From: Spirochaetota bacterium
Lineage (GTDB): Bacteria; Spirochaetota; UBA4802; UBA5550
Direction: 5' to 3'
DNA length: 64,000 bases
NCBI GenBank assembly: GCA_025457915.1
Contig: JALOTL010000005.1
Coordinates: 132,852 to 196,851 of the forward strand
Shown here: positions 44,542-61,211 of the stretch, piece after piece
Position numbering within the stretch: position 1 is the first letter of the stretch
Layout: each line of letters begins with the position of its first letter
Made by a program: the position numbers and the translations under genes
Notes under the pieces: model-generated
What the model was told of the DNA's origin: nothing
Databases searched by the model: none
Seen by the model: only the letters and a program-made list of their open reading frames with translations

Positions 44542-46338
44542 ATGAAAAGAATTATTAAAAAGAAATTCACACTGCCCGACGAAAGCGGACTACAGGATGT
44601 AATATTCCTTTTCGGCATCTTCGTATTCATATCCATCCTCATCATCGGCCTCTTCCCGGGACAGAGCATGGGTCTCGTGATCAACAAGGAGTTTTTCATT
44701 TACGCCGTGATGACGATACCTGCGATCGCGGCGATTTATTTCATAATAATGTCATTCAGGAGGAACCTCAATTTTGATTCAGCCTTCATACGGTACAGCA
44801 TAAGGAAGAAGATGGCCCTTGCTTTTATTTTCATGGCCGTAGTGCCGGCCCTTCCCATTGTGCTCGCTTCGAACTATCTTATCAGCCAGACCCTTTCGAG
44901 CCTTTTCGTCGGCAAGACCTCCAGCGCACTGAATGAAGCGGTTACCATGACTGACGAGAGCGTATCCGGCGTTAAAGACTCCATCGACAGGGAGCTCAGA
45001 AACCTTGACCAGATGATGAAGTCCGGGTTTTTCAACCCGTATTCCCCCAGGGACCGCGGCGTCCTGATCAAGGGGATGAAGATAAAGGATCTTGATGCCG
45101 CGTTTTTTACATGCGTCCGGGAAGGCGGATACAACAGGATAGCCGGCATGGACGCCCACGACGACCTGCCCGGCGGCATGAGGGAATTTTTCAGGGTGGT
45201 CGAGCTCGCGGACGGAATGCGGACCGACAGGGTGACCCTTTCAGGCAGGGAATACTTCATCGGGTCCCTGTCGGGCGGCGGGTGGCTGGTGGCCGTTTAC
45301 AAAAAGCTTCCCGAGGGCGCTAAAAAAAGGATGAATCTTTTCAATGCGGCCATCGAGGACTATAAAAATCTCGATTACATCAAGACTTATTTCATGGGAA
45401 GGGTCGGCATATTCCTCCTGGGCCTTTCCATCATGGTTATATTCATCGCGGTGCTGATAAGCCTTTACCTGTCCAAGAACATCACGAGCCCGGTGCTCGA
45501 GCTTTCCCGCGCCGCCAGGGAGATCGCCCATGGCAATTTCAACGTCAGGATGCACAGGGACTCGTACGATGAGCTCGGGATGCTTTACGATTCCTTCAAC
45601 CAGATGGCCTTCGACCTTGAAAGGAACAGGAAGACCATGTACCAGAAGCAGAGGCTGGAGGCCTGGAGGGAAATGGCCAGGCGCCTCGTGCATGAGATCA
45701 AGAATCCGCTGACCCCCATCAGGCTTTCCGCGGAAAGAATGAACAAGAGGTTCCTTGAAAAGCACCCCGACATAGAGGAGATAGTGCTGTCCGGAACCAA
45801 GACCATCATCGACGAGGTCGACGTCCTGATGAAGATACTCGAGGAATTCACCAAGTTCGCGAGGCTGCCGGACATGAAACCTGTAAAGACAAGCATAAAC
45901 AGGCTGATCGAAAACTCGCTTGCTTTTTTTGCCGGACACGAACAGGTGAATTTCATCTCCAATCTCGACGGGAGGATCCCGGACATTTATGTCGACAAGG
46001 TCCTGATGAGGCAGACCCTCACCAATCTGATACAAAATGCCGTGGATGCGATCGAGGACAGGGGCACGGTGGAGATCAGGTCTGAGATTTCCGAATCCGA
46101 GGACGTGAAAACCGTAACGGTCAGGGTGATCGACGACGGGACCGGCATAAAGGAAAAGGACATAGACAGGATATTCGATCCCGGGTTCTCAACCAAGCCT
46201 TCCGGCACGGGCCTCGGGCTTGCGATCGTGGAGAAGATCATCCTTGAGCACGGCGGCAGGATTTCTTGCGTTTCGAATCCCGGCGCCGGCACGCAGTTCA
46301 TCATAGAACTTCCCATGGAGGGAGGCGAAAATGGCTAA
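44542..46338 (+). CDS. Sensor histidine kinase (NtrY-like: TM-sensor, HAMP, HisKA, HATPase)
   Basis: 598 aa. TM segments; H-box HEIKNPLTPI; N, G1, G2 boxes (NLIQNAVDA, DDGTGI, GTGLGLAIV). Confidence 0.8.
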   Translation: MKRIIKKKFTLPDESGLQDVIFLFGIFVFISILIIGLFPGQSMGLVINKEFFIYAVMTIPAIAAIYFIIMSFRRNLNFDSAFIRYSIRKKMALAFIFMAVVPALPIVLASNYLISQTLSSLFVGKTSSALNEAVTMTDESVSGVKDSIDRELRNLDQMMKSGFFNPYSPRDRGVLIKGMKIKDLDAAFFTCVREGGYNRIAGMDAHDDLPGGMREFFRVVELADGMRTDRVTLSGREYFIGSLSGGGWLVAVYKKLPEGAKKRMNLFNAAIEDYKNLDYIKTYFMGRVGIFLLGLSIMVIFIAVLISLYLSKNITSPVLELSRAAREIAHGNFNVRMHRDSYDELGMLYDSFNQMAFDLERNRKTMYQKQRLEAWREMARRLVHEIKNPLTPIRLSAERMNKRFLEKHPDIEEIVLSGTKTIIDEVDVLMKILEEFTKFARLPDMKPVKTSINRLIENSLAFFAGHEQVNFISNLDGRIPDIYVDKVLMRQTLTNLIQNAVDAIEDRGTVEIRSEISESEDVKTVTVRVIDDGTGIKEKDIDRIFDPGFSTKPSGTGLGLAIVEKIILEHGGRISCVSNPGAGTQFIIELPMEGGENG

Positions 46339-47686
46339 GATCCTCGTGGTCGACGACGAGATAAACATTATCAAGACCCTCAGCTCCATCCTTCAGGACG
46401 AGGGCCACATTGTCTACCCGGCAAGGTCCGGCGAAGAGGCCCTGGATTTCATGAGGAAAAACGAAATCGACCTGGTCGTCCTGGACGTCTGGCTCCCGGA
46501 CACCGACGGGATAGAAATCCTCGAGCAGGTGAAGAAGCTGAGCCCGGACACGTCTGTGATCATGATATCCGGGCACGGGTCGATCGACATAGCGGTCAAG
46601 TCCACAAAGCTCGGGGCCTTCGATTTCATACAGAAACCGCCGACGATGGAGAGGGTCATAACGGCCGTGTCCAACGCGCTGGAACAGTCGAGGTTGAGAA
46701 GGGAAAACATAAAGCTGAAAAGGGAATTCCATATCGAAGACGAGATGATAGGCGAGTCCCGGAAGATCAACGAGATAAGAAAGATAATCGAGACCGCCGC
46801 GGCCACTAACGCGAGGGTCCTCGTAACCGGCGAAAGCGGGACCGGGAAGGAGCTCGTCGCGAAGGCGATATATCACAAGTCTAAAAGGTTCGACAAGCCG
46901 TTCATCAAGGTCAACTGCGCCGCCATACCCAACGAACTGATCGAAAGCGAGCTTTTCGGGCACGAGAAGGGGGCGTTCACGGGCGCCGTGACCAGGAGGA
47001 TCGGGAAATTCGAGCTTGCGAACAACGGCACGATTTTTCTGGACGAGATCTGCGATATGAGCCTGGCCGCCCAGTCGAAGGTCCTCAGGGTGCTGCAGGA
47101 GCAGCAGTTCGAGAGGGTCGGCGGGAGCGAGACCATTTCGGTGGACGTCAGGGTGATAGCCGCGACCAACATCGACATAAAAAAGGCCATCGAGGAAGGG
47201 GACTTCAGGGAAGACCTGTATTACCGGCTGAACGTCATCCCGATAATCGTGCCGCCCCTGTCCGAAAGGAAGGGAGACATTCCGCTCCTCGTGAATTATT
47301 TCCTGACAAAATTTTCCGAGGAGCACGGACTCGGCGCGAAGGAGATATCAGAGCCTGTCATGGAGACGCTCATGAACCACAACTGGCCGGGCAACGTCAG
47401 GGAGCTTAAAAACGCCATTGAGAGGCTGACAATAATGGTCCCGCGGGATTTCATATCCGAATCGGACATCATCAAGCACCTGGAATCCGCCAGGGACGCC
47501 ATCGGCTATTCCAGGGACATTTCCACTCTCAAAAAGGCGAGGGACGAATTCGAGAGGGACTACATCATAAGGATAATCAAGATGAACGACAAGAACATCA
47601 CCCTCGCGTCCAGGGCCCTCGGCATAGAAAGGACGAACCTTCACCGGAAAATCAAGAATTACAATATCGACCTGGACAAGATATGA
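46331..47686 (+). CDS. Sigma-54-dependent response regulator (NtrC/NtrX family)
   Basis: 451 aa. Receiver domain (DD...D...K); AAA+ sigma-54 activator (GESGTGKE, GAFTGA, ESELFGHEKG); C-terminal Fis-type HTH. Confidence 0.9.
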   Translation: MAKILVVDDEINIIKTLSSILQDEGHIVYPARSGEEALDFMRKNEIDLVVLDVWLPDTDGIEILEQVKKLSPDTSVIMISGHGSIDIAVKSTKLGAFDFIQKPPTMERVITAVSNALEQSRLRRENIKLKREFHIEDEMIGESRKINEIRKIIETAAATNARVLVTGESGTGKELVAKAIYHKSKRFDKPFIKVNCAAIPNELIESELFGHEKGAFTGAVTRRIGKFELANNGTIFLDEICDMSLAAQSKVLRVLQEQQFERVGGSETISVDVRVIAATNIDIKKAIEEGDFREDLYYRLNVIPIIVPPLSERKGDIPLLVNYFLTKFSEEHGLGAKEISEPVMETLMNHNWPGNVRELKNAIERLTIMVPRDFISESDIIKHLESARDAIGYSRDISTLKKARDEFERDYIIRIIKMNDKNITLASRALGIERTNLHRKIKNYNIDLDKI

Positions 47687-47740: not shown

Positions 47741-48421
47741 ATGGATAGGAAATTATACGAAGACATCATCGGCATCCTCATGGATAAATTCAGATCGGAC
47801 CGCCTTATAATATGCAGGGGGGAGGGGGAGACCGGGGCGCTCAGGGCGTTTCTCTCCGGCGGACGCCAGTCGTTTGACGAGTTCATCGAAAAAAAGGATG
47901 AAAAAGCCGATGTGGATGAGATCGTCAGGAACTGCGCCAGGTGCGGTCCGGGACTTGATAAGACTTTCGGCCGCGGAACAGGGAAGAACGGTGTCATGCT
48001 TATAATGAACATGCCTTCGATGGTGGCGGGGATAGAGAAAAAATATCTCGGCCCCGAATCCGACGGGCTTCTGCAGAAAATCGTCAGGGCCGCAGAGCTT
48101 GACATTGCCGACTGCTATGTGACCAGCCTCATAAAATGCGAAAAAGGGGACCCGTCTCTGAGACCGAGCCAGCTTTACAAAAACTGCGAGTACATATTGA
48201 AAAAGGAGATTGAATACTACTCGCCGAAAATCATACTCGTTTTCGGGGATATAATACCCCTCCAGAAGATCATCAAGGACAGCGTTGACATCCACTGGTT
48301 CAACATCGACCATCCGATAACCCTTTTGAAAAATCCCGAGCTGAAAAAAAGGGCCTGGGGCACCCTGAAGCTCGCGATGGAAAAATACGGGGAGATGAAA
48401 TCATCCGGTGTCATTCGCTGA
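47741..48421 (+). CDS. Uracil-DNA glycosylase family 4-like protein (divergent)
   Basis: 226 aa. CARC...C cysteines; motif A-like GRGTGKNGVMLIMNMPS; motif YVTSLIKCEKGDP (compare TNIVKCRPP); motif B-like DHPITLL. Confidence 0.55.
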   Translation: MDRKLYEDIIGILMDKFRSDRLIICRGEGETGALRAFLSGGRQSFDEFIEKKDEKADVDEIVRNCARCGPGLDKTFGRGTGKNGVMLIMNMPSMVAGIEKKYLGPESDGLLQKIVRAAELDIADCYVTSLIKCEKGDPSLRPSQLYKNCEYILKKEIEYYSPKIILVFGDIIPLQKIIKDSVDIHWFNIDHPITLLKNPELKKRAWGTLKLAMEKYGEMKSSGVIR

Positions 48422-50363
48422 CGTATACGTGGGCATCCCGCTGGATGAATGCTTCACTTACCGGGTCCCTGAGGGAATGCATGTTTCCCCGGGAATGAGG
48501 GTGAGGGTGGATTTTTCCGGAAGGGCGATGACCGCCTTCGTGCGCAGGGTGCACGGTGAAACTCCCGCGGACTTCGATCCGAAGGACCTGGTGGAGGCCG
48601 TGGACCCCGCGCCCATATTCGACACGCGCCTGCTTGACCTCTGCGGGCGGATATCATCCGACTATCTTTCTTCCGTCGGGGAGGCGCTGTCAATGGCCCT
48701 TCCGTCCGGGCTCAAACCCTCGTTCAGGTTTAAAACGCTTCCCGACCCGTCCGGCCCGGGGATAATCCTGAACGAAGAACAGTCCGCTGTTTACGGCGCC
48801 ATAATGCGCGGCGTCTCCGGTGGCGATCCGTATCACCTGATATTCGGGATAACCGGGAGCGGAAAGACCGAGGTCTACATGGAGCTCGCCAGGAGCGTCA
48901 TTGCCGCGGGGAAATCAGTCATATACCTGGTCCCGGAGATTTCCATCTCCTCCCAGATTTTCGAGAGGCTGGGCAGGGTTTTCGGGAGCCAGCTACTTGT
49001 GTACCACAGCCATCTCACGCCCAACCAGAGGCTCGGGAGCTGGATGAGGTTTTATTCCGGCGAGGCGAAGATAGCGGTCGGTACTAGATCCGCGGTTTTC
49101 CTGCAGTGCCCGGACCTCGGGCTCGTTATCATCGACGAGGAAAACGACGGGTCGTACAAGGAACACAGCACCCCGAGATACAACGCCAGGCGCGTCGCGG
49201 TCTACAGGTGCAGGGACGAGGGTGCGGCGCTGGTCATGGGATCCGCCACCCCGTCCATAGAAACGCTGCACTCGGCGGAGAGCGGGGTCTTCAGGCTCCA
49301 CAGGCTCACCGGGCGTTATGGGGGGGCCAGGCTTCCGGAGATAGAGGTCGTTAAGATGAAATCTTCACGGCCTTCGGACCTCATCACCCCGACCCTGAAG
49401 CTCGCCACGAAAAAGGCGATGGAAAACGGCAAGCAGGCCATTTACCTTCTCAACCGGCGCGGTTTTTCCCCGCTCGTGCTTTGCGGGGACTGCAGGGAGG
49501 CCGTTTCATGCCCCAACTGCAGCATAAGCATGAACCTGCACAGGGACGGAATGCTCTGCCACTACTGCGGGCTCAGGCGCCCGTTCCCGCGCGTCTGCGA
49601 CAAATGCGGGTCCCGGGAGATGCACAGGATCGGGACCGGCACGCAGAGGATGGAGGACCTCCTCGACATGAATTTTCCGGGGGTGAGGTCGTTCAGGCTC
49701 GACCAGGACAGCTCCAGGAAAAAGGGCTCGGTCCCGGATCTCATCGAAAAAATGAAGGAAGGCGAGATAGACATACTGCTGGGGACCCAGATGGTGGCGA
49801 AGGGCTTCGATTTCGGCAACGTTACGGTCGTGGGCGTTATCATGGCGGATATCGGGTTGAAGATGCCGGATTTCCGTTCCTCGGAAAGGGTGTTCGCGCT
49901 TCTCATGCAGGTGGCCGGGAGGTCGGGCAGGAGGGAAAGCCCGGGACGGGTCATTATACAGACGATGAACGACGACCAGGAAATCTTCAGGTTCATAAGG
50001 GACCACGATTATTACGGCTTTTACCGGCACGAGCTTGAACTCAGGAGGGCGATGGAATACCCTCCCTTCGTAAGGATGGCAAGGTTGCTCGTCAGGGGCA
50101 GGGACGATGCCAGGGTTTCCGAGGGTATTTCCAGGCTGGCCGAAGCAGTCAGGGAAGCGGCCGGGACTTCCGGCGCGGACGTGAAGATGCTGGGGCCCTC
50201 GTCGGCCCCGTTCACGAAGATCGGCGGGAACTACCGTCATCACATCATACTCAAATCTAAAAACACCGACGACCTGAAGAGCGTAATCACGCGTTCGAGA
50301 GGGTCGATGACGTTCAGGGACCTGTACCTGGAAATCGACATGGACCCCTATGAAATCATGTAG
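48408..50363 (+). CDS. priA: Primosomal protein N' (replication restart helicase)
   Basis: 651 aa. Walker A GITGSGKTEVY; DEEND(G); Cys-rich zinc-binding insert CGDCREAVSCPNC...CHYCG...CDKCG. Confidence 0.9.
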   Translation: MSFADVYVGIPLDECFTYRVPEGMHVSPGMRVRVDFSGRAMTAFVRRVHGETPADFDPKDLVEAVDPAPIFDTRLLDLCGRISSDYLSSVGEALSMALPSGLKPSFRFKTLPDPSGPGIILNEEQSAVYGAIMRGVSGGDPYHLIFGITGSGKTEVYMELARSVIAAGKSVIYLVPEISISSQIFERLGRVFGSQLLVYHSHLTPNQRLGSWMRFYSGEAKIAVGTRSAVFLQCPDLGLVIIDEENDGSYKEHSTPRYNARRVAVYRCRDEGAALVMGSATPSIETLHSAESGVFRLHRLTGRYGGARLPEIEVVKMKSSRPSDLITPTLKLATKKAMENGKQAIYLLNRRGFSPLVLCGDCREAVSCPNCSISMNLHRDGMLCHYCGLRRPFPRVCDKCGSREMHRIGTGTQRMEDLLDMNFPGVRSFRLDQDSSRKKGSVPDLIEKMKEGEIDILLGTQMVAKGFDFGNVTVVGVIMADIGLKMPDFRSSERVFALLMQVAGRSGRRESPGRVIIQTMNDDQEIFRFIRDHDYYGFYRHELELRRAMEYPPFVRMARLLVRGRDDARVSEGISRLAEAVREAAGTSGADVKMLGPSSAPFTKIGGNYRHHIILKSKNTDDLKSVITRSRGSMTFRDLYLEIDMDPYEIM

Positions 50364-50742
50364 ACCGCCGGCGTCAGGACCGCGAAAAAGCCTGCAATGA
50401 AACCTGTTCCAGGTGCATGGAAAGAGCCGCCAGGGTGGTGGACAGGGAGAAACAGGGCGAACTCGAGGCCGGGGTGAAGGATACGGCAAAGGAGGAGGCC
50501 TGCCAGGCGGCCAGGGACGAATGTGTCAATAATTGTTAGAGGTCCCCGGTTTATTGTATCGATGAATTTCATCACCTGAACAAACAGGCTGGATGTTTGC
50601 CTGGAGCGTCCATAAATATATATTATTGTCTTGACACGGAAGGCCTTTGCTAAAAAATGTTAATCAACGAGCGGTTTTATAATTAAATTTTAAGTATAAA
50701 AAATTTAATAAAAACCGTCAAATTTTTCTGGCAAGGCCTTTA

Positions 50743-53700
50743 ATGAACGCTTCAGTCGAAAAAGAAGCCGGGAGGGATTTCAATGATCTGCTCCTGCCTC
50801 TCGGCGATAGAATCGGCGCTCTTCAGAAGGCTAATAATCTGATCGCCGAATTGAACCACCCGAATATCGACTGGAAGTATGCCGTCGACGGAATCCGCTC
50901 CTACCTTTTCGATTTTTTCCATGACATCGAACCCTACTCTGACAGGGTGATTCCCATACTTCTGCATTTCCTTGAAGATGCCACGGCCCGGGGCAGGTCT
51001 TCCTCCCTGCGCGCTTGCGATACTTATCTGGACAGGTACTCCTTCGTCCTCAGGGAGACGGGTTTTCCGAATCTCGGCCTGGCTTTCAGCGCCCATTTTC
51101 CCGGTTATCTCGACCTGCTTACGGCCGAGTCCGGCAAGGGCCTTTATTTGAGCGGGGTGAACGGGAGGCTGATGGATACAGGATCCCTCTACGAACGCTC
51201 GGGATTGTCCGGGAGGGACGAATACGGCAAACTGGTATCCCTGCTGATATCGCAGTATGAACTTTATATCGGAAGATCGATAATTACGACGGAAAGCGAA
51301 CTGCGGGAACTCGGTGGAACGCCGGAACTGACGGGCCTGCTGTCGGACGTTTCCGCCGAATCATATTCCGGAAGGCTCAGGGAGATCAGGGCGCTCGCGG
51401 ATGCAGGGCGGGGAGATTTTTTCGCCGCGGCCTCGGGGCTGGTTGATTTTTCGCACAATGCGAGGTGCTGGGAAAGGGCCTGCGCGTATGTGAGGAAGGC
51501 CTTCGAAGAAGGAAATATATCAGGAGACCCGGTGATCATGGGGATACTCTCGTACCTCGTTAGGAAGTCGAACGAGGGCGGCGACAGGGACCTCCAGATG
51601 CACATATCCAGGACGGCAGCTGCCGCCTGCTCGATATTCTCCTCCAATACCGACGTTCTCAGGGGTATAATTGACCTGGTAATGCCCGCGCTTCTCGCGG
51701 AAATAGACAGGGGCGGGAATTATTTTTCCGCGTTTTCCACCATATACAACATCGGCAAGACCGTGGTCGGTTCCGGCAAGAAAACGATAATCGACTATTT
51801 CGTAGACTTTCTCGTGAAGTCTAAGTTCTGCTTCCCGGAGTTTTCCGGGATCGCCCAGGACTGGTCCGTGATAGTGAACTCGAGCCACCTGGAAAACATC
51901 AGGACATGGATGAAGCTCATCGAGCTCAACCCGACGCTCATGAAGAGGCTGGCGTCCAGCCTCATAGTCAACCTGAAGCTCGGCGGCGTTTTCCTGAAGG
52001 ACACCGACGTTTTCCAGAGGGACGTGTCGAGGCTCCTGAACAGCGATTACTCTGACGTCTTCTACCTGGTGATATCGCTTGCCGCTGTTTTTCCGGCCTT
52101 CTATCACGACATCGGGGCCACCGGCGACATCAGGTCCTACACCGAAAGGATAGACACGAACCATAAAATGGACGACCTGATCCATTTCCTGCGCAAGCAG
52201 GTGCACGTCGAGTCCTCGAGCAGGACAGTCTACCTTTTCCAGCGGGTGATGGAATTCTGGCTGACCGGCGACAGCGGCCTGCTGGAGGGAATGGTGCCGC
52301 AGGAGGTCTTCGAAAGGCTCGACGGTTTTTTTGAAATGATGAATCTCGACTCGGACCCGGCCGCCCGCGCCGTCCTCGACGGCGCCAGGAGCGTTTTCGA
52401 AGAACTCTCCGGGCTGAGTTTCTGGGATTTCCTGGACAGGGTCGACGGCGGCGCCTTCCTGGAAGCGGCCCGGCGCCTGGAGCCGGCCGGCATAGGTCCC
52501 GGCGAAAAGGAAAGGGCGCTGCGGCATTTCGCCGGGTACTTCGAATCGCGGAACCCGGCGGAGATGACCAAGATGCTGGCCTGCATGAAAAACAGGTTCG
52601 GCATCGACGCGTCAGGCAGGGATATGTGGAAGCGCCTTTACGAGATACCGGACGACGAGTTCAGGGGCCTTTTCGAGGACGTAAAGGGCGAAGAGTTTTC
52701 CAGGGTCAACGTTGAAAAATTCATCACCTTCCTGCACGTGTACAGGATGCTCTTCGACAAGTATAATTTCTCCGAGGTGAGGGGCGTCGAGAAGCTTGAA
52801 TCATACGCCGCGGAAAACCTCTTCGAACCGGGCGCGGGTTTTTTCGAAGCCCTGAGGAAGGGCGGCGCGTTCGAATCCCTCGACGCGCTCCTGTCGCTAC
52901 AGGACTCGCTGAAGTCCGGCGTGCTGCTGGGCGGGAAGACCTTCGAGCCGCTCGATACCATCGAGTTCAAGAGGCACATAGCGTTCGGCATCCCTTCCAT
53001 GTACGGTTCATACAAGGAGAAAAAGTTCGACACCCTCAAGGTTTTTTTTCACACCAACCTGATAATCGTGGGCCTTTTCGAGAGGTCATACGCCTCGCTC
53101 GGCATCATGAAGGGCGGCCCGGTGGATTACGCCGAGACCGCCGGGTTCATCCGGCTGTTTTTCAGGAAGTTCCTGATCGACGGGCTCATGAACCAGGAAA
53201 TGGTCACGGTCATAAGCCTGCTGGAGACGCCGAACCTCAGGATTTCCCAGTTCAGGGACATCGTCAACCACCTGCTCGGAATACACGGGGAGATATCCGA
53301 CAGGTTCAACGAGACCTTCAAGGACGTCTGCCGCGAGGCCATAAAAAACATAGGCATCGAAAGGATTTCCAGGAGGTTCCTGCCCGACGAAAGCGAGAGC
53401 AGCGTCGACGTGGTCGTCGACAGGTTCCTCAGGGACCAGATAATGCAGACGCCCCTCCTCCAGCTTTTCGACAACCTGCTGATAAGGCTCAAGGAGCGCC
53501 TCGCGACCGAGCTGGCGATGAGGGGGGACGGCGTCTGTCTCAACCCGGTTTCAGGTCCCCCGGCAAGGGGCGGGATAGCCTTCCGGATAGGAAAGACCCC
53601 GGCCGCGGGGGTTGCCGCGCCGGTGTGGGAGACAGGCGGGAAGGCGTACGGGCTCCTCTTTGCGTCCGAAATAGAAGGCATCAGGATCCCGGAGGGTTTC

Positions 53701-55101
53701 ATACTTTCATCAGGGCTTTACAAGAGGGTAAAGGACGGCAACCTGAAGAACCCAAGGTTCAGGGAGCGCATGATGGGGCTCCTCAGGAAGGAGATCCCGC
53801 TTTTTACCGGCAACAGGTTCGGCAACATGGACAATCCGGTCCTTCTCTCGGTCAGGAGCGGCGCGGTGTTCTCCATGCCCGGCGTGATGGACACCATAAC
53901 GAACGTTGGGATAACGAAGGACATAATCGATTTCTACGCGGAGAGGGACCCGTGGTTCGCGTATGACTGCTACAGGAGGCTGATCCAGGACCTGGCAATT
54001 TCATCCTACGGGATGGACAGATCGATTTTCGAGAAGCTCATGAGCCAGGCCAAGGAAGAGGCGGGCGTCGCACTCAAGGAGGAGCTGACCTCCGGCCAGA
54101 TGGAGATACTGACAAGGAAGTACCGCTACGCCATAAACTCCCACGGTTTCTCCGTGCCGGAGGACCCGTACGAACAGCTCTTCGAGGCGATACTGTCCGT
54201 GTACAGGTCATGGGAATCGCCTATCGCCAGGAATTTCAGGGATTTCGTCAACATATCCGGCGAGTGGGGGACTGCGGTCATAGTCCAGAGGATGATATTC
54301 GGAAATTACTCTCCTTCCGACATAACCGGGGTCGTATACAGCCAGAACCTCGGCAACGAAAACATCGGCCTCTTCGGAGAATACAAGACCAGGGCCCAGG
54401 GGCACGACATAGTAAGCGGCGTCGCCAGGGTGTTCCCGGTCAGCGAGGAGCAGAAGAGGGTCTACGCCAAATCCAGGGCGTTTCCGTCCATGGAGAAGAA
54501 TTTTCCCGGCCTTTATTCGGCGCTTTACGACGCCGTCAGGAGGATAAGGGAGGGGTGGAGGAACGACGTGGAGATCGAGTTCACGATTGAAAACAACAAT
54601 CTCTACATACTCCAGATCAGGGGAATGACCAGGCACACCTTCGAAATAGAGGAGCTGGAATCAAACAGGGACGAGCTTCATTACTGCCTGCTCGGGCAGG
54701 GCCTCGCCGCCTCGGGCGGAGTGGTGTCCGGCAGGGCCGTCTTCGGCATCGGGAGGATAGATTTCTTCAGGGAAAGGTTCAGGGACGAAAAGATCGTGCT
54801 GGTGAGGCCCGAGACCACGCCGGAGGAGGTCATCGGCATCAAGAAGTCGGACGGCATTCTTACCTGCGTCGGCGGCATGACGTCGCACGCCGTTTTACAG
54901 ATGAGGCGGTTCGAGAAGTCCGGCGTGAGCGATTTTTCCGCGATGAAGATAGACGAATCAAGGAACAGCGCCACGGTCAGGAAGGAGTTTTTCGAAAAAG
55001 ACCACGTGGTGATCAACGAGGGGGACTACATAACCATAGACGGGAATACCGGGAACGTATATCTCGGATATCATAAGACGAAAAAAAAGATTACCCAATA
55101 A
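50743..55101 (+). CDS. Giant multidomain protein: unknown ~850-aa N-terminal region + PPDK-like ATP-grasp nucleotide-binding domain + PEP-utilising phosphohistidine swivel domain (no PEP/pyruvate TIM barrel)
   Basis: 1452 aa. C-terminal about 570 aa align by eye to PPDK residues about 1-530 (GGKAYGL...PEGFILSS, NPVLLSVRSGAVFSMPGVMDTITNVGI, FAYDCYRRLIQ, LLGQGLAASGGVVSGRAVF, GILTCVGGMTSHAVL with catalytic His). Ends after the swivel domain. Confidence 0.7.
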   Translation: MNASVEKEAGRDFNDLLLPLGDRIGALQKANNLIAELNHPNIDWKYAVDGIRSYLFDFFHDIEPYSDRVIPILLHFLEDATARGRSSSLRACDTYLDRYSFVLRETGFPNLGLAFSAHFPGYLDLLTAESGKGLYLSGVNGRLMDTGSLYERSGLSGRDEYGKLVSLLISQYELYIGRSIITTESELRELGGTPELTGLLSDVSAESYSGRLREIRALADAGRGDFFAAASGLVDFSHNARCWERACAYVRKAFEEGNISGDPVIMGILSYLVRKSNEGGDRDLQMHISRTAAAACSIFSSNTDVLRGIIDLVMPALLAEIDRGGNYFSAFSTIYNIGKTVVGSGKKTIIDYFVDFLVKSKFCFPEFSGIAQDWSVIVNSSHLENIRTWMKLIELNPTLMKRLASSLIVNLKLGGVFLKDTDVFQRDVSRLLNSDYSDVFYLVISLAAVFPAFYHDIGATGDIRSYTERIDTNHKMDDLIHFLRKQVHVESSSRTVYLFQRVMEFWLTGDSGLLEGMVPQEVFERLDGFFEMMNLDSDPAARAVLDGARSVFEELSGLSFWDFLDRVDGGAFLEAARRLEPAGIGPGEKERALRHFAGYFESRNPAEMTKMLACMKNRFGIDASGRDMWKRLYEIPDDEFRGLFEDVKGEEFSRVNVEKFITFLHVYRMLFDKYNFSEVRGVEKLESYAAENLFEPGAGFFEALRKGGAFESLDALLSLQDSLKSGVLLGGKTFEPLDTIEFKRHIAFGIPSMYGSYKEKKFDTLKVFFHTNLIIVGLFERSYASLGIMKGGPVDYAETAGFIRLFFRKFLIDGLMNQEMVTVISLLETPNLRISQFRDIVNHLLGIHGEISDRFNETFKDVCREAIKNIGIERISRRFLPDESESSVDVVVDRFLRDQIMQTPLLQLFDNLLIRLKERLATELAMRGDGVCLNPVSGPPARGGIAFRIGKTPAAGVAAPVWETGGKAYGLLFASEIEGIRIPEGFILSSGLYKRVKDGNLKNPRFRERMMGLLRKEIPLFTGNRFGNMDNPVLLSVRSGAVFSMPGVMDTITNVGITKDIIDFYAERDPWFAYDCYRRLIQDLAISSYGMDRSIFEKLMSQAKEEAGVALKEELTSGQMEILTRKYRYAINSHGFSVPEDPYEQLFEAILSVYRSWESPIARNFRDFVNISGEWGTAVIVQRMIFGNYSPSDITGVVYSQNLGNENIGLFGEYKTRAQGHDIVSGVARVFPVSEEQKRVYAKSRAFPSMEKNFPGLYSALYDAVRRIREGWRNDVEIEFTIENNNLYILQIRGMTRHTFEIEELESNRDELHYCLLGQGLAASGGVVSGRAVFGIGRIDFFRERFRDEKIVLVRPETTPEEVIGIKKSDGILTCVGGMTSHAVLQMRRFEKSGVSDFSAMKIDESRNSATVRKEFFEKDHVVINEGDYITIDGNTGNVYLGYHKTKKKITQ

Positions 55102-55115
55102 CGGAAGACGGGAGG

Positions 55116-56273
55116 TTGGAAATGGGAAGCATATCGACGGGCTCGCCGGTCGGGATTTCCGGGATCGGCAGGATAGGAAAGCTGCTGGCGTGGGTTTTAT
55201 CCGCGAGGAAGGAGCAGAAGGAGATCGTCATCTCCACCGGGAGGGGCACCGGGAAGAGGATCGAGGACCTGGCCACGTACCTGGCCTGGGACTCCACTTA
55301 CGGCAAGTACGCGAGGTTCGTCCACGGGTACAGGACTGACAGCGCGATAGAGATAATCGACGGGAGCGTCTACATGAACGGCGTCAGGGTCATCTGGCTC
55401 AACGATCCCAAACACAGGGTCCCGGGGACCATCCCGTGGTCTGAACACGGCGTAGAGCTGGTGTTCGACACGACCGGTAAAATGCTCGACCCGGCGGCGA
55501 ACGACGACAACTCCCTGAGGGGACACCTCAACCACGCCAGGAAGGTGGTGCTTACCGCGCCCTTCAAGGCGAAAAACAAGGGGACACCCGTGCCGGACGA
55601 CTCCGTGACCGTCGTCGGCGGAGTGAATTTCGACAGATACGATCCCGAAAGGCACAGGATCGTGTCCAACGCCTCATGCACCACGAACTGCGTGGCGCCA
55701 CCGATCAAGGCCCTCGTCGACCACTTCGGGGAAAGGTTCATATCGTATTCGCTCACCACGGTGCACGCGGTAACGAATTCGCAGAGCGTGCTTGACGTGC
55801 TTCCTAAAGACGGGGACAGCGACACCAGGAAGAGGAGGAGCATACTCAACAACATGATACCGACGTCGACCGGCGCGGCAAACGCGGTCATAGAGGTGGT
55901 GCCGGAGATCAGGGACCTGGGAATAGGCTCGCAGGCGTCGTCGATAAGGGTCCCGACCAGCACCGGTTCGATCGTCATACTCGACATATCACTGATGGGG
56001 GAATACGACAACGCGCATATTCATGATATATTCAGGACCTACTCCGAGAAGAACCCGGGGATAATGAAGTTCTCGACGGAACAGCTGGTAAGCTCGGACG
56101 TCATAGGCAGCACCTACTCGACGATATACGATTCGCTGTTCACGCACAGGAGGACTTCGAAGAGGGGCGAGCAGTATTACACGATGGTCGACCTGAATTT
56201 CTGGTATGACAACGAGTTCGGCTACGTCAATTCGCTCATGAGGCTCTACGACCGCATGTGCGGCAGGGCGTAA
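55116..56273 (+). CDS. Glyceraldehyde-3-phosphate dehydrogenase family protein (divergent, elongated)
   Basis: 385 aa. NAD-binding ISGIGRIGK; catalytic SNASCTTNCVAP; TTVHA, TGAA, WYDNEFGY motifs. Insertions relative to canonical 335-aa GAPDH. Starts 15 bp after the giant gene. Confidence 0.75.
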   Translation: MEMGSISTGSPVGISGIGRIGKLLAWVLSARKEQKEIVISTGRGTGKRIEDLATYLAWDSTYGKYARFVHGYRTDSAIEIIDGSVYMNGVRVIWLNDPKHRVPGTIPWSEHGVELVFDTTGKMLDPAANDDNSLRGHLNHARKVVLTAPFKAKNKGTPVPDDSVTVVGGVNFDRYDPERHRIVSNASCTTNCVAPPIKALVDHFGERFISYSLTTVHAVTNSQSVLDVLPKDGDSDTRKRRSILNNMIPTSTGAANAVIEVVPEIRDLGIGSQASSIRVPTSTGSIVILDISLMGEYDNAHIHDIFRTYSEKNPGIMKFSTEQLVSSDVIGSTYSTIYDSLFTHRRTSKRGEQYYTMVDLNFWYDNEFGYVNSLMRLYDRMCGRA

Positions 56274-56297: not shown

Positions 56298-57536
56298 TCA
56301 CCTGCCGGCCAGTTCCCGGTCAATGATCCCTTCAAGTATCTCCCGGGGCACCAGCCCGCCGAGCCTTCTGCCGGCGATGAATATCGCCGGGGTCCCCCTG
56401 ATTTTAAGCTTTTCGCCCGCGGCTATGCCGCCGAAAAGCCTGTCGCTGACGGTTTCGGAATCGATCAGCGCGGAGAACCCGCTTTCGTCAGGCGCCAGGC
56501 CGGCCTTCCCGGCGGCCAGCCTGTAGTTTTCCATCATGTCGGTTTTTTCATATCCCCTTGAATACTTTTCGTATGCGGAAAAGTGCGCCACGAGGTATTC
56601 CCTGAAAAGGCCCTTGTCCGAGGCCGCGATTATGGCCCTCGATGCGAGGCAGGAATTTTTGTAAACCGTCCTCGAGACGCCCGGGTTGCACTCCTTGTCG
56701 AGCGGATAGATGTAGTAGACGAATTTTATCCTGCCCCTGTATTTGGAGAGGAGGAACTTTTCCATCTTGAACAGTTCGTAGCAGTGGCTGCAGAGGAAGT
56801 CCGTGAAGACCGTTACGGTCACGGGCGCGTCCGGGTTTCCTATGATCATTTTGCTGTCGGGCAGGTCGGGCTTCTCGACGGCATAATTATAGAAGTCCTT
56901 TATGAATGAAGACACCTCCGCGTCGGACGCGTGCATGTCCTCCGTCTTGAGCCTCAGGTTGAACGAAGCGGAAAAAACCGCGAAGGCCAGAAGGACCGCG
57001 AAGAGCATGAAGGCCGAGATGAACGCCTTCTTGAAATGGTCTCCGGCGCCGATGCTGATGATCCCCCTGAGGTTGCCGGCAAGGTCCGCCATGCCCCAGC
57101 CCTTTTCGATCCTGCATAGCATGAAAAGCGCCGCGAATATGAGGATGCTGATGATGTAGGTCGCGAAGCAAAGCGGGCAGAAGGTGCTTATCACTATCAG
57201 GATGATCCCGAGCGCCAGGTCGGCGGCCAGGGAAAGCGCCGAGAGCGGGAGCAGAATTGCCACGGCGTATCCGTAAAGCTCGCCCTCCGCGTAATCGGCG
57301 ATCAGCACGGTAAAAAGCGTGAAGAGATAAAAAAGGAGCCCGTATGCGGCAAGGGGCAGTCCGAAAATGACCGAATACCTGGATTGTCCGAGCGCGAGGC
57401 ACGGGTTTTCAAGCGCGTCGCCGCATGATATGACGGGCAGCTGTGAGTCCGGATAGTAGTGCTGGAAAAAAAGTATCCCGGACACGGCCGCGCCGGCGAT
57501 TGAAAGCGCGATAAGCGCGTAAATGTATTTTTTCAT
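56298..57536 (-). CDS. Vitamin K epoxide reductase (VKOR) domain fused to DsbA-like thioredoxin domain
   Basis: 412 aa. Five TM helices with a loop Cys pair and TM CPLC (VKOR-like). C-terminal periplasmic thioredoxin fold with CSHC active site. Confidence 0.8.
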   Translation of the reverse strand: MKKYIYALIALSIAGAAVSGILFFQHYYPDSQLPVISCGDALENPCLALGQSRYSVIFGLPLAAYGLLFYLFTLFTVLIADYAEGELYGYAVAILLPLSALSLAADLALGIILIVISTFCPLCFATYIISILIFAALFMLCRIEKGWGMADLAGNLRGIISIGAGDHFKKAFISAFMLFAVLLAFAVFSASFNLRLKTEDMHASDAEVSSFIKDFYNYAVEKPDLPDSKMIIGNPDAPVTVTVFTDFLCSHCYELFKMEKFLLSKYRGRIKFVYYIYPLDKECNPGVSRTVYKNSCLASRAIIAASDKGLFREYLVAHFSAYEKYSRGYEKTDMMENYRLAAGKAGLAPDESGFSALIDSETVSDRLFGGIAAGEKLKIRGTPAIFIAGRRLGGLVPREILEGIIDRELAGR

Positions 57537-58038: not shown

Positions 58039-59190
58039 CTATACCCTTATCATTGGATCGGTGAGCTTCCTGTGCTCCTCGAGCGCGTACCTGTCGGTCA
58101 TCCCGGCTATGAAGTCCGCGGTTGTCTTGAACACGCCCTCTGACTCTATCCTCGTCTGGTAGTCGTCCGGCAGGGTGTCCGGATGCACCGTGTAAATCCG
58201 GAACAGGTCGATCATCACCTTCTGCGCCTTCATGGACATCCTCGCGACCCTGTAGTGCTGGTAAAGCCTTTCCCTGAGGAACTTCTTCAGCTCGCCGTTT
58301 GCCGATTTGACGGGGTCGTTGAATCCCGTCAGCTTTTCGCCGGCTTTCCTGACGTCGTCCAGGTTCTTTACCGATTTTTTTTCAAGGTTGCCGACGGTGT
58401 GTTTGATGAGGTCGGACACGAGGAGGTTGATTATCGCCCTGATCATGGTCCTGGCGCCTATCCTGCCGTCGGACCCGGAGTCCCCCATGCGGTCCTCAAC
58501 CATCGAGTAGATGGCGAGCCTTTTTATGTCCTCCATTTTTATGAGTCCCGAGGAAAGGCCGTCGTCAAGGTCGTGGTTGTTGTAGGCTATCTCGTCGGCG
58601 ATGTCGATTATCTGCGCCTCGAGGGTCGGCTGTTCCTCCGGCAGGAAATCCGTGAAGACCGCGCGGTCGTACTGCGATGAGTGCTTGATTATGCCCTCCC
58701 TGGTCTCCCAGGTGAGGTTCAGGCCCATGAAGCCGGGGTAGGCGATCTCTATCTCATCCACGACCCTGAGGCTCTGCCTGTTGTGCTCGAAACCCCCGTG
58801 GTCTTTAAGGAGCCTGTTGAGCTCCTTTTCGCCGGCGTGCCCGAACGGCGTGTGGCCGAGGTCGTGGGCGAGGGCGATGCTTTCAGCCAGGTCCTCGTTC
58901 AGCCTGAGGGTCCTGGCGATCGTCCTCGAAATCTGCGCCACCTCCATGGTGTGGGTGAGCCGCGTCCTGTAGTGGTCTCCCTCGTGGTTGATGAACACCT
59001 GGGTCTTGTATTCAAGGCGCCTGAAGGCCCTGGAGTGGATTATCCTTTCCCTGTCCCTCTGGAACTCGGTCCTGTACGGGTGGGGGTCTTCCGGGTGGAC
59101 GCGGCCCCTGGTGCGGGAGGACCTGGCCGCCCATGGAGCGATGCCCATTTCCTCGATCTCCTCGAGGTATTTTCTGTCGGCCGGTATCAT
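58039..59190 (-). CDS. dGTP triphosphohydrolase-like HD-domain protein
   Basis: 383 aa. IIHSRAFRRLEYKTQVF...RLTHTMEVAQI...AHDLGHTPFGHAGE HD motifs typical of Dgt-like proteins. Confidence 0.85.
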   Translation of the reverse strand: MIPADRKYLEEIEEMGIAPWAARSSRTRGRVHPEDPHPYRTEFQRDRERIIHSRAFRRLEYKTQVFINHEGDHYRTRLTHTMEVAQISRTIARTLRLNEDLAESIALAHDLGHTPFGHAGEKELNRLLKDHGGFEHNRQSLRVVDEIEIAYPGFMGLNLTWETREGIIKHSSQYDRAVFTDFLPEEQPTLEAQIIDIADEIAYNNHDLDDGLSSGLIKMEDIKRLAIYSMVEDRMGDSGSDGRIGARTMIRAIINLLVSDLIKHTVGNLEKKSVKNLDDVRKAGEKLTGFNDPVKSANGELKKFLRERLYQHYRVARMSMKAQKVMIDLFRIYTVHPDTLPDDYQTRIESEGVFKTTADFIAGMTDRYALEEHRKLTDPMIRV

Positions 59191-61211
59191 CTTTCCCTGG
59201 AGATCTCGGCCTCGTATGCCTGCATCGCGGTCTTCCTGTTCATCCGGATCTCTTCGCTTGACGGGTCTTCCTCGATCCCCCTGGTGAAGGCCTTCAGTGC
59301 CTTACCGTACTGCTTCTTCTTGTAGTATGCCTTGCCGATGTTGTTGTAGGCCTCGGAGACCATCTTTGAATCGTTGGAGGCCTTCACCACCTGGTAGAAC
59401 GCGTCTATCGCCCTGTCGTACATCTGCTTTTTCGAGTAGATGATTCCCAGCGAATTAAGCGCCTCCGGGTCGCCCGGCTTTATCAGCAGGGCCTTCTGGA
59501 TCTGCTGCATGGACTTTTCCATCGACTCCTCGGTGGCGCCCGTCTTCGCCTGTATCAGGCCGAGGTTGATGTACGCCTTGCGCGAGAGCTCGCTGTTTTC
59601 GTTGATCTCGATCACGCGCTGGTAGGCCCTCTGCGCGTATTCGAGCTGGTTCCTCTTGTAGTAGATCGTGGCCAGCTTGAAATGGCCCTCCTGTATGTTC
59701 GGCCATCTCCTGGCCACCTTCTCGTATTCCTTTTCGGCGAGGTCCGCGAATCCCCTCTCGTAGTAGAGGTCGGCCATCGACAGGAGCGGCTTGGGGTCGT
59801 TGACGTTGAGGTCCGCCGCCTTTCTCCAGGCGTCGACCGCGAGCTCCGGCTTCCCGGCGTGCTTGTACGCTATGCCGAGATTGTAGAGCGCGGTGTCGTC
59901 CTTCGGGCTTATGGCCAGGGCCTTGCTGTATGCCTCCACGGCCTCGTCGAACCTCTGCGCGTCGTCCAGGATGTTTCCCATGTTCAGGAACGCGATCCTG
60001 GCGTTTTCAGTCGCGGGCTCTATGGACGTGATTTTCTTGTACGTATCGTAGGCCCTGTCGAGCTCGCCCTTTTCGTAGTATATCTCTCCAAGTCTCGAGA
60101 GTATCCTCACGTTCCTCGAGTTTATGTTCAGCAGCCTTTCGTAGACTGACTGGCTCCTGTTGTAGTCGCGCATGGCGAGGTACGCGTCGCCGAGGTTTTC
60201 CAGCATCTCGGAGTCCCTCTCGCCGAGCTCTTCGGCCTTTTTGAATTCCTCCGCCGCCTCCTCCTTCTTATTCTGGCGCATGTAGGCTATTCCGAGGTTG
60301 TACCTGTTCAGCGCGTCGGAAGGCCTGATGGAGACCGCCTCCTTCAGGTATTTTTCCGCCATCTCGAAGTTCTTCCTTTCGGTGTACATGACCCCGAGCC
60401 TGGAATAGGCCCTGTGCGCGACTTCGCCTATCCTGTCGGCCGCGGCCGCCTTCCTGAGGTATTCCATCGCGGCGAATTCGTCCCCGGTCTTGAGCATCGA
60501 CATGCCGAGGTTGTACATGACTGCCGCGTTGTCGGGGTTTTCCTTCAGCGCGTCACCGTACTGTTCGGCCGCGTCCTTGAATTTGCCCTGGTCGAAGTAG
60601 ATGTTTCCAAGGAGTATCTTCGAATTGACGTCCTTCGCGTTCAGCGAGATGGATTCCTTCGCTGTGTCCGCCGCCCTGTCGTAGTCCTTCTTGTGCCTGT
60701 ATGCTATGGAGAGGTTCTTGTATATGTCCGCGTTTTTGCTGTCGTATTTCATGGCCCTGGTGTAGTATTCCACGGCCTTGTCGTATTCGTTCCTGTCGTC
60801 GGCGATCATTCCGAGGAAGGCCAGCGCTATACCCTTGTCCCTGTCGCTGGACCCGGACTCCACCACCTCGTTGAATTCCGAGACGGCGTCGTTGTAGTAT
60901 TGTTTGGCGTAGCTTTCCCTGCCGCGCTTGATGTGGATGTTGTCGGAATCGGCGCCCATCTCCTTCACGACCCCGTCGATCGGCTGCATGGCGTTTTTGT
61001 TGGGGGTGAATATCTCCGGCCTTATGTAGACGAACCTGGTGGCGATTATTATGCCGCCGATCAGTACGGCGGCTACGGACGTGAGTATGATTATCTGTTT
61101 CAGCGGGAAGTTTCTCGCAGGCTTTCCCTCCTGTTCAAGGCCGCTGATCCTGCCGTGCTTGACCTCGAAGGGGTCATCGCCCGTATTCATGGGGTCTCTT
61201 CTGCCTAACAC
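59187..61211 (-). CDS. TPR-repeat protein with N-terminal TM anchor
   Basis: 674 aa. One N-terminal TM helix, then about 14 tandem 34-aa TPR units (W-LG-Y / A-F-A-P patterns). Confidence 0.75.
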   Translation of the reverse strand: MLGRRDPMNTGDDPFEVKHGRISGLEQEGKPARNFPLKQIIILTSVAAVLIGGIIIATRFVYIRPEIFTPNKNAMQPIDGVVKEMGADSDNIHIKRGRESYAKQYYNDAVSEFNEVVESGSSDRDKGIALAFLGMIADDRNEYDKAVEYYTRAMKYDSKNADIYKNLSIAYRHKKDYDRAADTAKESISLNAKDVNSKILLGNIYFDQGKFKDAAEQYGDALKENPDNAAVMYNLGMSMLKTGDEFAAMEYLRKAAAADRIGEVAHRAYSRLGVMYTERKNFEMAEKYLKEAVSIRPSDALNRYNLGIAYMRQNKKEEAAEEFKKAEELGERDSEMLENLGDAYLAMRDYNRSQSVYERLLNINSRNVRILSRLGEIYYEKGELDRAYDTYKKITSIEPATENARIAFLNMGNILDDAQRFDEAVEAYSKALAISPKDDTALYNLGIAYKHAGKPELAVDAWRKAADLNVNDPKPLLSMADLYYERGFADLAEKEYEKVARRWPNIQEGHFKLATIYYKRNQLEYAQRAYQRVIEINENSELSRKAYINLGLIQAKTGATEESMEKSMQQIQKALLIKPGDPEALNSLGIIYSKKQMYDRAIDAFYQVVKASNDSKMVSEAYNNIGKAYYKKKQYGKALKAFTRGIEEDPSSEEIRMNRKTAMQAYEAEISRER

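Follow-up and report, generated by a model that had tools for sequence, protein, structure and literature searches.

A TIM-barrel-less dikinase and its linked GAPDH paralogue: candidate for an ATP-to-AMP bypass of phosphoglycerate kinase

Here we describe a pair of adjacent genes of a Spirochaetota bacterium, located in a 64,000-nucleotide stretch of contig JALOTL010000005.1 (the window, whose coordinates are used throughout). One of them encodes a 1452-amino-acid (aa) relative of pyruvate, phosphate dikinase (PPDK), here called the dikinase, and the other a divergent paralogue of glyceraldehyde-3-phosphate dehydrogenase (GAPDH). We establish the architecture of the dikinase, its conservation and synteny, the intactness of its catalytic motifs and its glycolytic operon context. 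The protein leads from an alpha-solenoid N-terminal region (the N-domain) through a PPDK-type ATP-grasp to a phospho-histidine swivel domain, and it lacks the phosphoenolpyruvate (PEP)/pyruvate-binding triose-phosphate isomerase (TIM) barrel. The reading we prefer, with a probability of roughly 0.35, is that it acts as an ATP-to-AMP dikinase at the 3-phosphoglycerate (3-PG)/1,3-bisphosphoglycerate (1,3-BPG) step, coupled to its own GAPDH and bypassing phosphoglycerate kinase (PGK). In its fully specified form it would add to central carbon metabolism a new enzyme, namely a 3-phosphoglycerate, phosphate (or water) dikinase, which makes or consumes 1,3-BPG via phospho-histidine (His~P) and channels it to a dedicated NADP(H)-accepting GAPDH; this form we put forward more tentatively still.

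In the usual view the PGK and GAPDH steps form the core of glycolysis and gluconeogenesis, universal and reversible. The known bypasses, GapN and GAPOR, avoid 1,3-BPG, to our knowledge, solely in the oxidative direction. That a dikinase so widespread is locked to a GAPDH of its own, and often lies within gap-pgk-tpiA operons, suggests either an unrecognised route driven by ATP-to-AMP conversion or a dedicated control device at the PGK/GAPDH step. If the proposed function is true, anaerobes would gain from the PGK bypass a step of gluconeogenesis with a thermodynamic pull or a step of glycolysis that conserves pyrophosphate (PPi), and the dikinase would correspond, in lower glycolysis, to PPDK and PEP synthase. 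The carriers include sulfate reducers, syntrophs, acetogens and Leptospirales-like spirochaetes, all relevant to carbon cycling, and the current labels, 'PEP-utilizing enzyme' or 'pyruvate, phosphate dikinase' for one gene and 'GAPDH' for the other, mis-assign both in metabolic reconstructions. New here are the acceptor domain of the dikinase and its obligate partnership. The initial annotation of this locus knew of no described system of such architecture, and our full-text literature search likewise found no published study of the dikinase family or of the dikinase-GAPDH pairing.

The dikinase gene and its PPDK-related parts are as follows:

50743..55101, + strand, dikinase gene, ATG start, 1452 aa
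53581..54651, + strand, ATP-grasp nucleotide-binding domain, aa ~947-1303, corresponding to TIGR01828 profile positions 19-338
53848-53883, + strand, Gly-rich loop SVRSGAVFSMPG, inside the ATP-grasp domain
54574-54591, + strand, IEFTIE, inside the ATP-grasp domain
54688..55083, + strand, phospho-His swivel domain, aa 1316-1447, the chain ending 5 residues later
54886-54888, + strand, codon of the catalytic His1382 in GGMTSHAVL, placed by alignment to PPDK

The open reading frame (ORF) had been taken for a fusion of 1452 aa, and it is one, its full-length homologues in several phyla speaking against an artefact; a database entry, P0001 ('PEP-utilizing enzyme [Spirochaetes bacterium]'), has the identical sequence. 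Pfam recognised just two domains in it, PPDK_N at aa 1030-1303 (PF01326, E=3.6e-19) and PEP-utilizers at aa 1349-1437 (PF00391, E=2.4e-12). In phmmer alignments against the PDB, aa 965-1297 matched residues 19-340 and aa 1316-1447 residues 390-512 of C. symbiosum PPDK (1kbl). The homology to PPDK claimed earlier for the last ~570 aa (against residues ~1-530) therefore stands, while the length does not: ~505 aa are PPDK-like and align to these two segments. The dikinase keeps the Gly-rich loop SVRSGAxxSMPG, EFTIE and GGMTSH of PPDK, and the catalytic histidine that had been located in GGMTSHAVL is His1382, this motif aligning to GGMTSHAA of 1kbl. As had been noted, a PEP/pyruvate-binding domain is missing. 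The chain ends after the swivel, at the equivalent of PPDK residue ~516; no Pfam domain follows, and no TIM barrel is coded downstream or elsewhere in the window. Because of this loss the known way of forming or consuming PEP is closed to the dikinase, and its first half-reaction is presumably that of PPDK, i.e. ATP (+ inorganic phosphate, Pi) -> His~P + AMP (+ PPi).

By architecture as well as by curated score the dikinase, though it resembles the His-swivel dikinases in its workings, fails membership of every named family considered (PPDK, PEP synthase, VadK-like, Rph and PigC). It scored 317 bits with the whole-protein PPDK model TIGR01828 (cut-off 843), 36-43 bits with the PEP synthase models TIGR01418 and NF005057 (cut-offs 598-740), 221 bits with NF004531 for truncated PPDK (PRK05878; cut-off 456) and 15 bits with NF041857 for rifampin phosphotransferase (cut-off 999), the Rph, PigC and RedH models giving 14-15 bits against cut-offs of at least 999.

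The remainder of the protein, preceding the ATP-grasp, contains two conserved cores:

50743..53577, + strand, N-domain, aa 1-945, nearly all alpha-helical, a HEAT/ARM-like solenoid plus two short beta elements, one at aa 367-378 and one at aa 741-758
51727..52332, + strand, N-domain core 1, aa 329-530, defined by alignments; cross-phylum tblastn and phmmer matches centre here
51877-51909, + strand, core 1 motif NSSHLENIRTW
51997-52026, + strand, core 1 motif KDTDVFQRDV
52186-52218, + strand, core 1 motif FLRKQVHVESS
52690..53532, + strand, N-domain core 2, aa 650-930, defined by alignments
52969-53031, + strand, beta-hairpin motif KRHIAFGIPSMYGSYKEKKFD in core 2, with invariant K743, R744, H745, S752, Y754, G755, Y757 and E759

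This region had been given ~850 aa. Since family-invariant residues reach as far as F895 and D910, within aa 850-945, the domain-less part is to be set at aa 1-~945, which leaves ~505 aa for the PPDK-like part. Its description as devoid of recognisable motifs was right in so far as Pfam, NCBIfam and PADLOC scans of aa 1-945 found no family. Family alignments nevertheless revealed further invariant positions, namely H382, D420, T421, D422, R464, D471, R484, K485, H488 and E490 in core 1, and K673, Y674, Q836, Q907 and D910 in core 2 besides those of the hairpin. Across phyla the cores share 22-26% overall identity and yet ~20 invariant charged or polar residues, a pattern which looks typical of a ligand-binding or catalytic site and not of a passive linker. 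From these alignments we infer that the two cores form a second active site, in which phosphate would pass from His~P to the acceptor. The conserved cores define a new domain family, one without an existing family model.

The N-domain models confidently as an alpha-solenoid, in which a single internal loop, the hairpin's K-R-H tip (pLDDT <50 at aa 744-747), has low confidence; the structural matches of the N-domain are HEAT/ARM-type scaffolds only, with no specific solved relative among them. Such a match keeps alive a protein-directed reading, the main rival of the bypass and one we hold unlikely though deserving of attention, that the dikinase is a regulatory phosphotransferase to whose solenoid the GAPDH paralogue, or another glycolytic enzyme, binds and whose His~P phosphorylates a residue of the bound protein, thus switching or tuning the flux at the triose-phosphate node. 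HEAT/ARM-type folds serve as interaction scaffolds, in agreement with this; the ~20 invariant charged residues, on the other hand, fit a catalytic or ligand site better than an interface.

Homologues of 1335-1540 aa are known in Spirochaetota, Desulfobacterota, Nitrospirota, Bacteroidales, Calditrichales and Bacillota, and their carriers we take to be anaerobes growing largely on non-sugar substrates and in need of gluconeogenesis. A search with aa 1-950 of the dikinase returned, from Spirochaetota, ~60 full-length homologues of 1451-1504 aa with 47-57% identity. A more distant group, 1354-1544 aa long, came from Nitrospirota, Geobacteraceae and Desulfosarcinaceae, and most of the N-domain aligned in it at 25-30% identity. 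The C-terminal end just past the His domain is common to the homologues (~100 full-length database proteins). Genome loci were fetched for the 80 best-scoring of several hundred hits, with Desulfobacterota over-represented, and 73 complete ORFs of the dikinase architecture were counted in 83 fetched loci plus the window. An exhaustive HMMER scan of 1.84 billion cluster representatives (50% identity) yielded 291 clusters at E<=1e-3. Their complete members are almost all 1335-1540 aa long and the shorter ones look like fragments, so that the N-domain has been seen only fused to the dikinase module. When one genome for each GTDB species was scanned for patterns, at least 595 matching stretches were confirmed, which, as two patterns per gene are possible, corresponds to at least ~300 genomes. 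Among the pattern matches listed are those of Desulfosarcina widdelii PP31, Desulfatitalea alkaliphila, Acetobacterium carbinolicum DSM 2925, a Calditrichales isolate, and Bacteroidales and Lentimicrobiaceae metagenome-assembled genomes (MAGs).

These numbers bear on a suspicion voiced with the initial annotation, that the pair might be a frameshifted or mis-assembled ppdK or ppsA joined to an upstream gene and followed by a housekeeping gapA. The window does come from a MAG, which is the sole point in favour of this explanation. Equal architecture, length and C-terminal end recur in hundreds of independent assemblies, complete genomes included, as in the ~100 full-length proteins and 291 clusters of like architecture, and this recurrence excludes mis-assembly or frameshift. 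A coding sequence for a TIM barrel is absent both downstream and throughout the window, and co-resident canonical gap genes exceed the type I GAPDH cut-off, which the paralogue does not reach. On these grounds the artefact explanation was rejected, so far as sequence data allow, as extremely improbable.

The second gene of the pair and the motifs of its product are listed below:

55110-55115, + strand, ribosome-binding site GGGAGG, 6 nt 5' of ATG 55122, read from the sequence
55122..56273, + strand, dikinase-linked GAPDH paralogue gene, 383 aa (385 aa for the mechanical ORF from TTG 55116)
55152-55181, + strand, Rossmann motif GISGIGRIGK
55227-55247, + strand, VISTGRG, replacing canonical AINDL
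55665-55691, + strand, SNASCTTNC with catalytic Cys186, the Cys149 equivalent
55755-55775, + strand, TTVHAVT with His215, the His176 equivalent
within 55857-55880, + strand, TGAA, Thr208-Gly209
55941-55958, + strand, SIRVPT with Arg276, the Arg231 equivalent
56139-56156, + strand, clade motif FTHRRT, aa 340-345 of the 383-aa paralogue
56202-56225, + strand, WYDNEFGY

A GAPDH of 385 aa starting 15 bp downstream of the dikinase had been annotated. The ORF is real; its likely start, however, is ATG 55122, because GGGAGG lies 6 nt upstream of it and translation from there gives exactly the 383 aa of database protein P0121. As TTG 55116 abuts the ribosome-binding site, the intergenic gap is 20 bp. 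An AlphaFold2 model of the paralogue (pLDDT 88.6) has the GAPDH fold, with a Foldseek target-normalised TM of 0.87 to 1gd1, and the identity to solved GAPDHs is ~30-35%. The hallmarks that had been pointed out, GISGIGRIGK, SNASCTTNC and WYDNEFGY, are all present, and conserved clade-wide are GxGRIGK, SNASCTT, TVHAxT, TGAA, a basic residue 195, SxRxPT and WYDNE. With its Cys/His pair intact the paralogue is apparently catalytically competent. Thr179, Arg231, Ser148, Thr150, Thr208, Gly209 and the basic residue 195 are kept in the clade and in comparison with 1hdg and 1cer; together they make up, as we understand it, the two phosphate sites of GAPDH, for substrate phosphate and for inorganic phosphate. 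As the residues of both sites are kept, the substrate should be like glyceraldehyde-3-phosphate (G3P) or 1,3-BPG, and the paralogue should bind a phosphorylated C3-like substrate together with inorganic phosphate, as phosphorylating GAPDHs do.

A determinant of NAD+ preference in type I GAPDH is Asp32 at the end of strand beta-2. This residue is exchanged for Gly in the paralogue, in which AINDL is changed to V-x-(N/T)-x-G-R, with Gly40 and Arg41 invariant across the clade. Among the closest structures are 1dbv and 3dbv, engineered Asp32-to-Gly GAPDHs which were reportedly made to admit NADP. The loss of Asp32, as in these enzymes, suggests that the paralogue accepts NADP(H).

Insertions in the paralogue were already recognised in the initial annotation, and the alignments show them to be clade-specific: ~14 aa after DSTYG and the 13-aa SAPFKIK...P-D. 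In addition, Asp181 is replaced by Ser in the clade and the S-loop is longer by 4 aa. The canonical T-K-V gives way to T-H-x-R-T, in which T341, H342 and T345 are near-invariant and R344 is invariant (loci L001-L087), and the loop from there to WYDNE varies among phyla from ~0 to 30 aa. By its conservation T-H-x-R-T is a candidate docking or phospho-acceptor element of the paralogue. For a regulatory role of the dikinase the loop bearing this motif would be the candidate acceptor, and the insertions together with T-H-x-R-T, all absent from canonical GAPDH, could be its docking or acceptor sites.

That this is not an ordinary gapA, the other possibility left by the initial annotation, follows from the curated models. 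With TIGR01534 (cut-off 367) the paralogue of the window reached 288.7 bits and four relatives 294-326, which spans 289-326 bits in all, compared with 431-435 bits for three sampled canonical gap genes of dikinase loci. The paralogue also fails TIGR01532 for erythrose-4-phosphate (E4P) dehydrogenase (127 bits, cut-off 530), NF033735 for ArsJ-associated GAPDH (176 bits, cut-off 450) and PRK08289 for long GAPDH (175 bits, cut-off 431). A canonical gap co-occurs in 7 dikinase loci, hence the paralogue there is not the housekeeping enzyme and has a separate role. Within the 64-kb window there is no second gap gene. In a Leptospirales MAG (L012:5723-6739, - strand) a canonical gap adjoins the dikinase divergently, upstream of it, with the paralogue downstream. 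The nearest relatives of this gap are from Desulfuromonadales/Geobacter at 68-75% identity, which hints at horizontal transfer of the gene or of its region. A database search with it returned mostly Desulfuromonadales-like GAPDHs and none on contigs of the window's genome or of its relative.

That the paralogue stays below all NCBIfam equivalog cut-offs (those for GAPDH, E4P dehydrogenase and ArsJ-linked GAPDH) would also suit a dikinase for some other acceptor, such as 4-phosphoerythronate or another phosphorylated hydroxy or sugar acid, glycerate or glyceraldehyde, with the paralogue acting on the matching acyl phosphate or aldehyde in a side pathway merely adjoining glycolysis genes. Altered features close to the substrate and cofactor sites (Ser for Asp181, the longer S-loop and the FKIK insertion) would agree with it, and so would the high diversity of acceptors among TIM-less members of the superfamily, for which the literature names rifampin, hydroxyphenylethanones, glucans and prodiginine precursors. 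Against it stand the conservation of the residues aligning to both GAPDH phosphate sites and the neighbourhood, where gap, pgk, tpiA and secG are the only recurrent neighbours and genes of other pathways are not conserved nearby. We consider it improbable, and more so than a regulatory role.

Conservation of the neighbourhood, proposed earlier as a check, was examined in 66 informative loci, each having at least 1.5 kb after the dikinase. The GAPDH paralogue lies directly 3' on the same strand in 56 of them and is convergent in one more. Looked up from the GAPDH side, all of five proteins (5/5) have a 1393-1505-aa PPDK_N + PEP-utilizers gene immediately 5'. Clustering of all neighbouring ORFs disclosed no third conserved partner gene. 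The next commonest neighbours, each restricted to certain lineages, are Wood-Ljungdahl genes, an rRNA dimethylase, pgk and tpiA. Pairwise identities of dikinases and paralogues are correlated with r=0.97 over 49 loci, a figure which fits co-inheritance as a unit and to which shared phylogeny contributes. The strict co-variation would also suit a kinase with the paralogue as its protein target; a 1450-aa kinase with a dedicated enzyme paralogue, in one operon and in six phyla, would nonetheless be unusual for a regulator, and some genomes have the dikinase with no paralogue nearby. A self-contained two-gene operon is the best explanation of the pair. The initial annotation had proposed either a two-enzyme module acting on a common substrate or a regulatory phosphorylation system, an interpretation that finds partial support: of the three conditions named there as refuting it (mis-assembly, an ordinary gapA, lack of conservation of the pair), none was borne out.

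In 9 Desulfobacterota loci the module is part of a glycolytic operon, with tpiA after pgk in 8 of the 9 and secG in 5 of the 9; the identities of PGK, TIM and SecG were confirmed by Pfam. The gene order is dikinase, GAPDH-like, canonical gap, pgk, tpiA in L027, L033 and L051, dikinase, GAPDH-like, pgk, tpiA in L016, L020, L028 and L029, and dikinase, pgk, tpiA, secG in L035 and L053, the last with a canonical gap upstream. This embedding in gap-pgk-tpiA operons points to the triose-phosphate/3-phosphoglycerate node. In 9-12 Desulfobacterales loci Wood-Ljungdahl genes stand directly 5' of the dikinase, coding for CdhC (ACS/CODH beta), the CdhD/AcsC corrinoid protein, a pterin-binding methyltransferase and DUF3786 (the loci with such genes upstream being L021, L023, L025, L037, L040, L067, L069-L072, L076, L081 and L083). 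The adjacency could be a link to autotrophic gluconeogenesis or only reflect shared ancestry.

According to the function we favour, the PGK bypass, the ATP-grasp domain would take ATP and transfer its beta-phosphate to His1382 with release of AMP, the gamma-phosphate probably going to Pi to give PPi. PPi is the expected product because the dikinase is much closer to PPDK (317 bits) than to PEP synthase (36-43 bits). The 945-aa alpha-solenoid takes the place of the TIM barrel, and His~P would pass its phosphate to an acceptor bound at the N-domain site, most likely the carboxylate of 3-PG, a choice which follows from the nearly constant adjacency of the paralogue and from the repeated gap-pgk-tpiA operons. 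The net reaction would be 3-PG + ATP + Pi <-> 1,3-BPG + AMP + PPi, after which the paralogue, perhaps in a physical complex with the dikinase, would reduce the labile acyl phosphate to G3P. Acceptor, direction, cofactor and complex are inferred. In the gluconeogenic direction the reaction could provide a pull for energy-limited anaerobes, and in reverse it could form ATP from AMP and PPi, so that the energy of PPi is conserved in glycolysis. From textbook free energies we calculate ~+5 kJ/mol for the formation of 1,3-BPG by the dikinase compared with ~+19 kJ/mol by PGK, the dikinase route turning favourable once PPi is removed. The proposed dikinase would stand to PGK by the same logic as PPDK or PEP synthase stands to pyruvate kinase.

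Several observations weigh against the bypass. Its assignment draws on sequence, synteny and predicted structure, and a helical-repeat solenoid such as the N-domain is commoner in protein-protein scaffolds than in small-molecule active sites. In 10 of the 66 loci (~15%), that of the cultured Acetobacterium carbinolicum included, no same-strand paralogue lies directly 3' of the dikinase; one of these has the convergent arrangement and three have a canonical gap nearby, and the neighbours of the paralogue-less dikinases are unrelated housekeeping or transport genes. Several genomes have PGK right beside the module, which is hence not required as a substitute for a missing PGK. Finally, the missing Asp32 is at most suggestive of NADP(H) use. 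In the acetogen A. carbinolicum DSM 2925 (L080, NZ_CP173357.1: 3778091-3793611) the 1362-aa dikinase has an amino-acid ABC transporter and an HTH regulator as its neighbours, and within 5 kb there is no GAPDH gene.

Comparison with known systems places the dikinase among enzymes that have exchanged or lost the TIM barrel. PPDK (EC 2.7.9.1; C. symbiosum 1kbl/1dik) is homologous over the ATP-grasp and the phospho-His swivel; it carries a C-terminal PEP/pyruvate TIM barrel, whereas the dikinase has none and possesses the N-terminal 945-aa alpha-solenoid instead. Rifampin phosphotransferase, PigC/HapC, HpeHI, glucan water dikinase and phenylphosphate synthase resemble the dikinase in combining ATP-grasp and swivelling His with an acceptor domain of their own in place of the TIM barrel. 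That domain is central or C-terminal in dikinases of the rifampin phosphotransferase type and N-terminal here, and the solenoid is unrelated to theirs.

PTS enzyme I, in which a helical subdomain docks the protein acceptor HPr, provides a precedent for phosphate transfer from His~P to a protein, as a regulatory dikinase would perform. It has the same PEP-utilizers swivel His domain; it is charged by PEP via a TIM barrel, in contrast to the dikinase with its ATP-grasp for ATP, and no sequence similarity between the N-domain and PTS enzyme I was detected. For the paralogue, type I GAPDH (TIGR01534) shares the Rossmann GxGxxG, Cys149, His176 and WYDNE, and differs by having Asp32 and by the score of the paralogue below its cut-off. 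A further likeness, presumably, is to GapB of Bacillus subtilis and other gluconeogenic GAPDH paralogues that use NADP(H): a second phosphorylating GAPDH accompanies a canonical one, and its altered residue-32 region suggests that it uses NADP(H) and works in anabolism. The GapB structure 8wwz was one of the structural matches. Unlike GapB, the paralogue has four clade-specific insertions, T-H-x-R-T and the genetic lock to the dikinase. A further precedent for a regulatory function is VadK (Rv1127c) of Mycobacterium tuberculosis, a PPDK derivative without TIM barrel which autophosphorylates on His422, binds methylcitrate-cycle enzymes and tunes their flux (PMC13400623). VadK and the dikinase both keep the ATP-grasp and His domains, have lost the TIM barrel and are tied to particular central-metabolic enzymes; VadK, however, has ~490 aa with no extra domain as against the 945-aa N-domain, its partners belong to the methylcitrate cycle and not to the GAPDH step, and the taxa differ as well.

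A non-coding region of ~380 bp had been noted in front of the pair, and the sequence there is indeed free of genes:

50364..50742, no strand, gene-free region of 379 bp 5' of the dikinase operon, with no ORF of at least 80 aa wholly within
50631-50658, + strand, sigma-70-like promoter candidate TTGACA-16-AAAAAT, from a promoter scan, 10/12 match

An Rfam search of these 379 bp gave zero families at E<=1, hence no riboswitch or other RNA was found. PADLOC defence models matched neither protein at E<=0.01, and the reading of the pair as an anti-phage defence system was rejected for this reason. The 64-kb window holds no TIM-barrel fragment and no further piece of dikinase or GAPDH elsewhere.

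The module is flanked upstream by a histidine kinase, a sigma-54 response regulator, a uracil-DNA glycosylase (UDG)-like gene and PriA, and downstream by a convergent VKOR-DsbA, a dGTPase and a TPR protein, none of which recurs beside homologous modules in other genomes. At 44542-47686 (+ strand) a HAMP-HisKA-HATPase sensor kinase, with the Leptospira LIC_11548 family as its best NCBIfam match, overlaps a sigma-54-dependent NtrX-like response regulator by 8 bp. At 47741-50363 (+ strand) the gene of a divergent family-4-like UDG (38 bits, cut-off 125) shares 14 bp with the beginning of priA, an overlap suggestive of co-translation with this replication-restart helicase. The VKOR-thioredoxin/DsbA fusion (56298-57536, - strand) is convergent with the GAPDH paralogue, the stop codons being 24 bp apart, and a terminator-like hairpin looked for between them was not detected. 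The 674-aa TPR protein (59187-61211, - strand) reached 200.7 bits with the NCBIfam MamA model (cut-off 200), almost certainly a generic effect of TPR repeats and not the mark of a magnetosome gene. In 2-kb bins the GC content of the window ranges over 0.40-0.58, with low-GC patches at ~2-6, 22-24 and 40-42 kb and values of 0.53-0.58 in the dikinase region.

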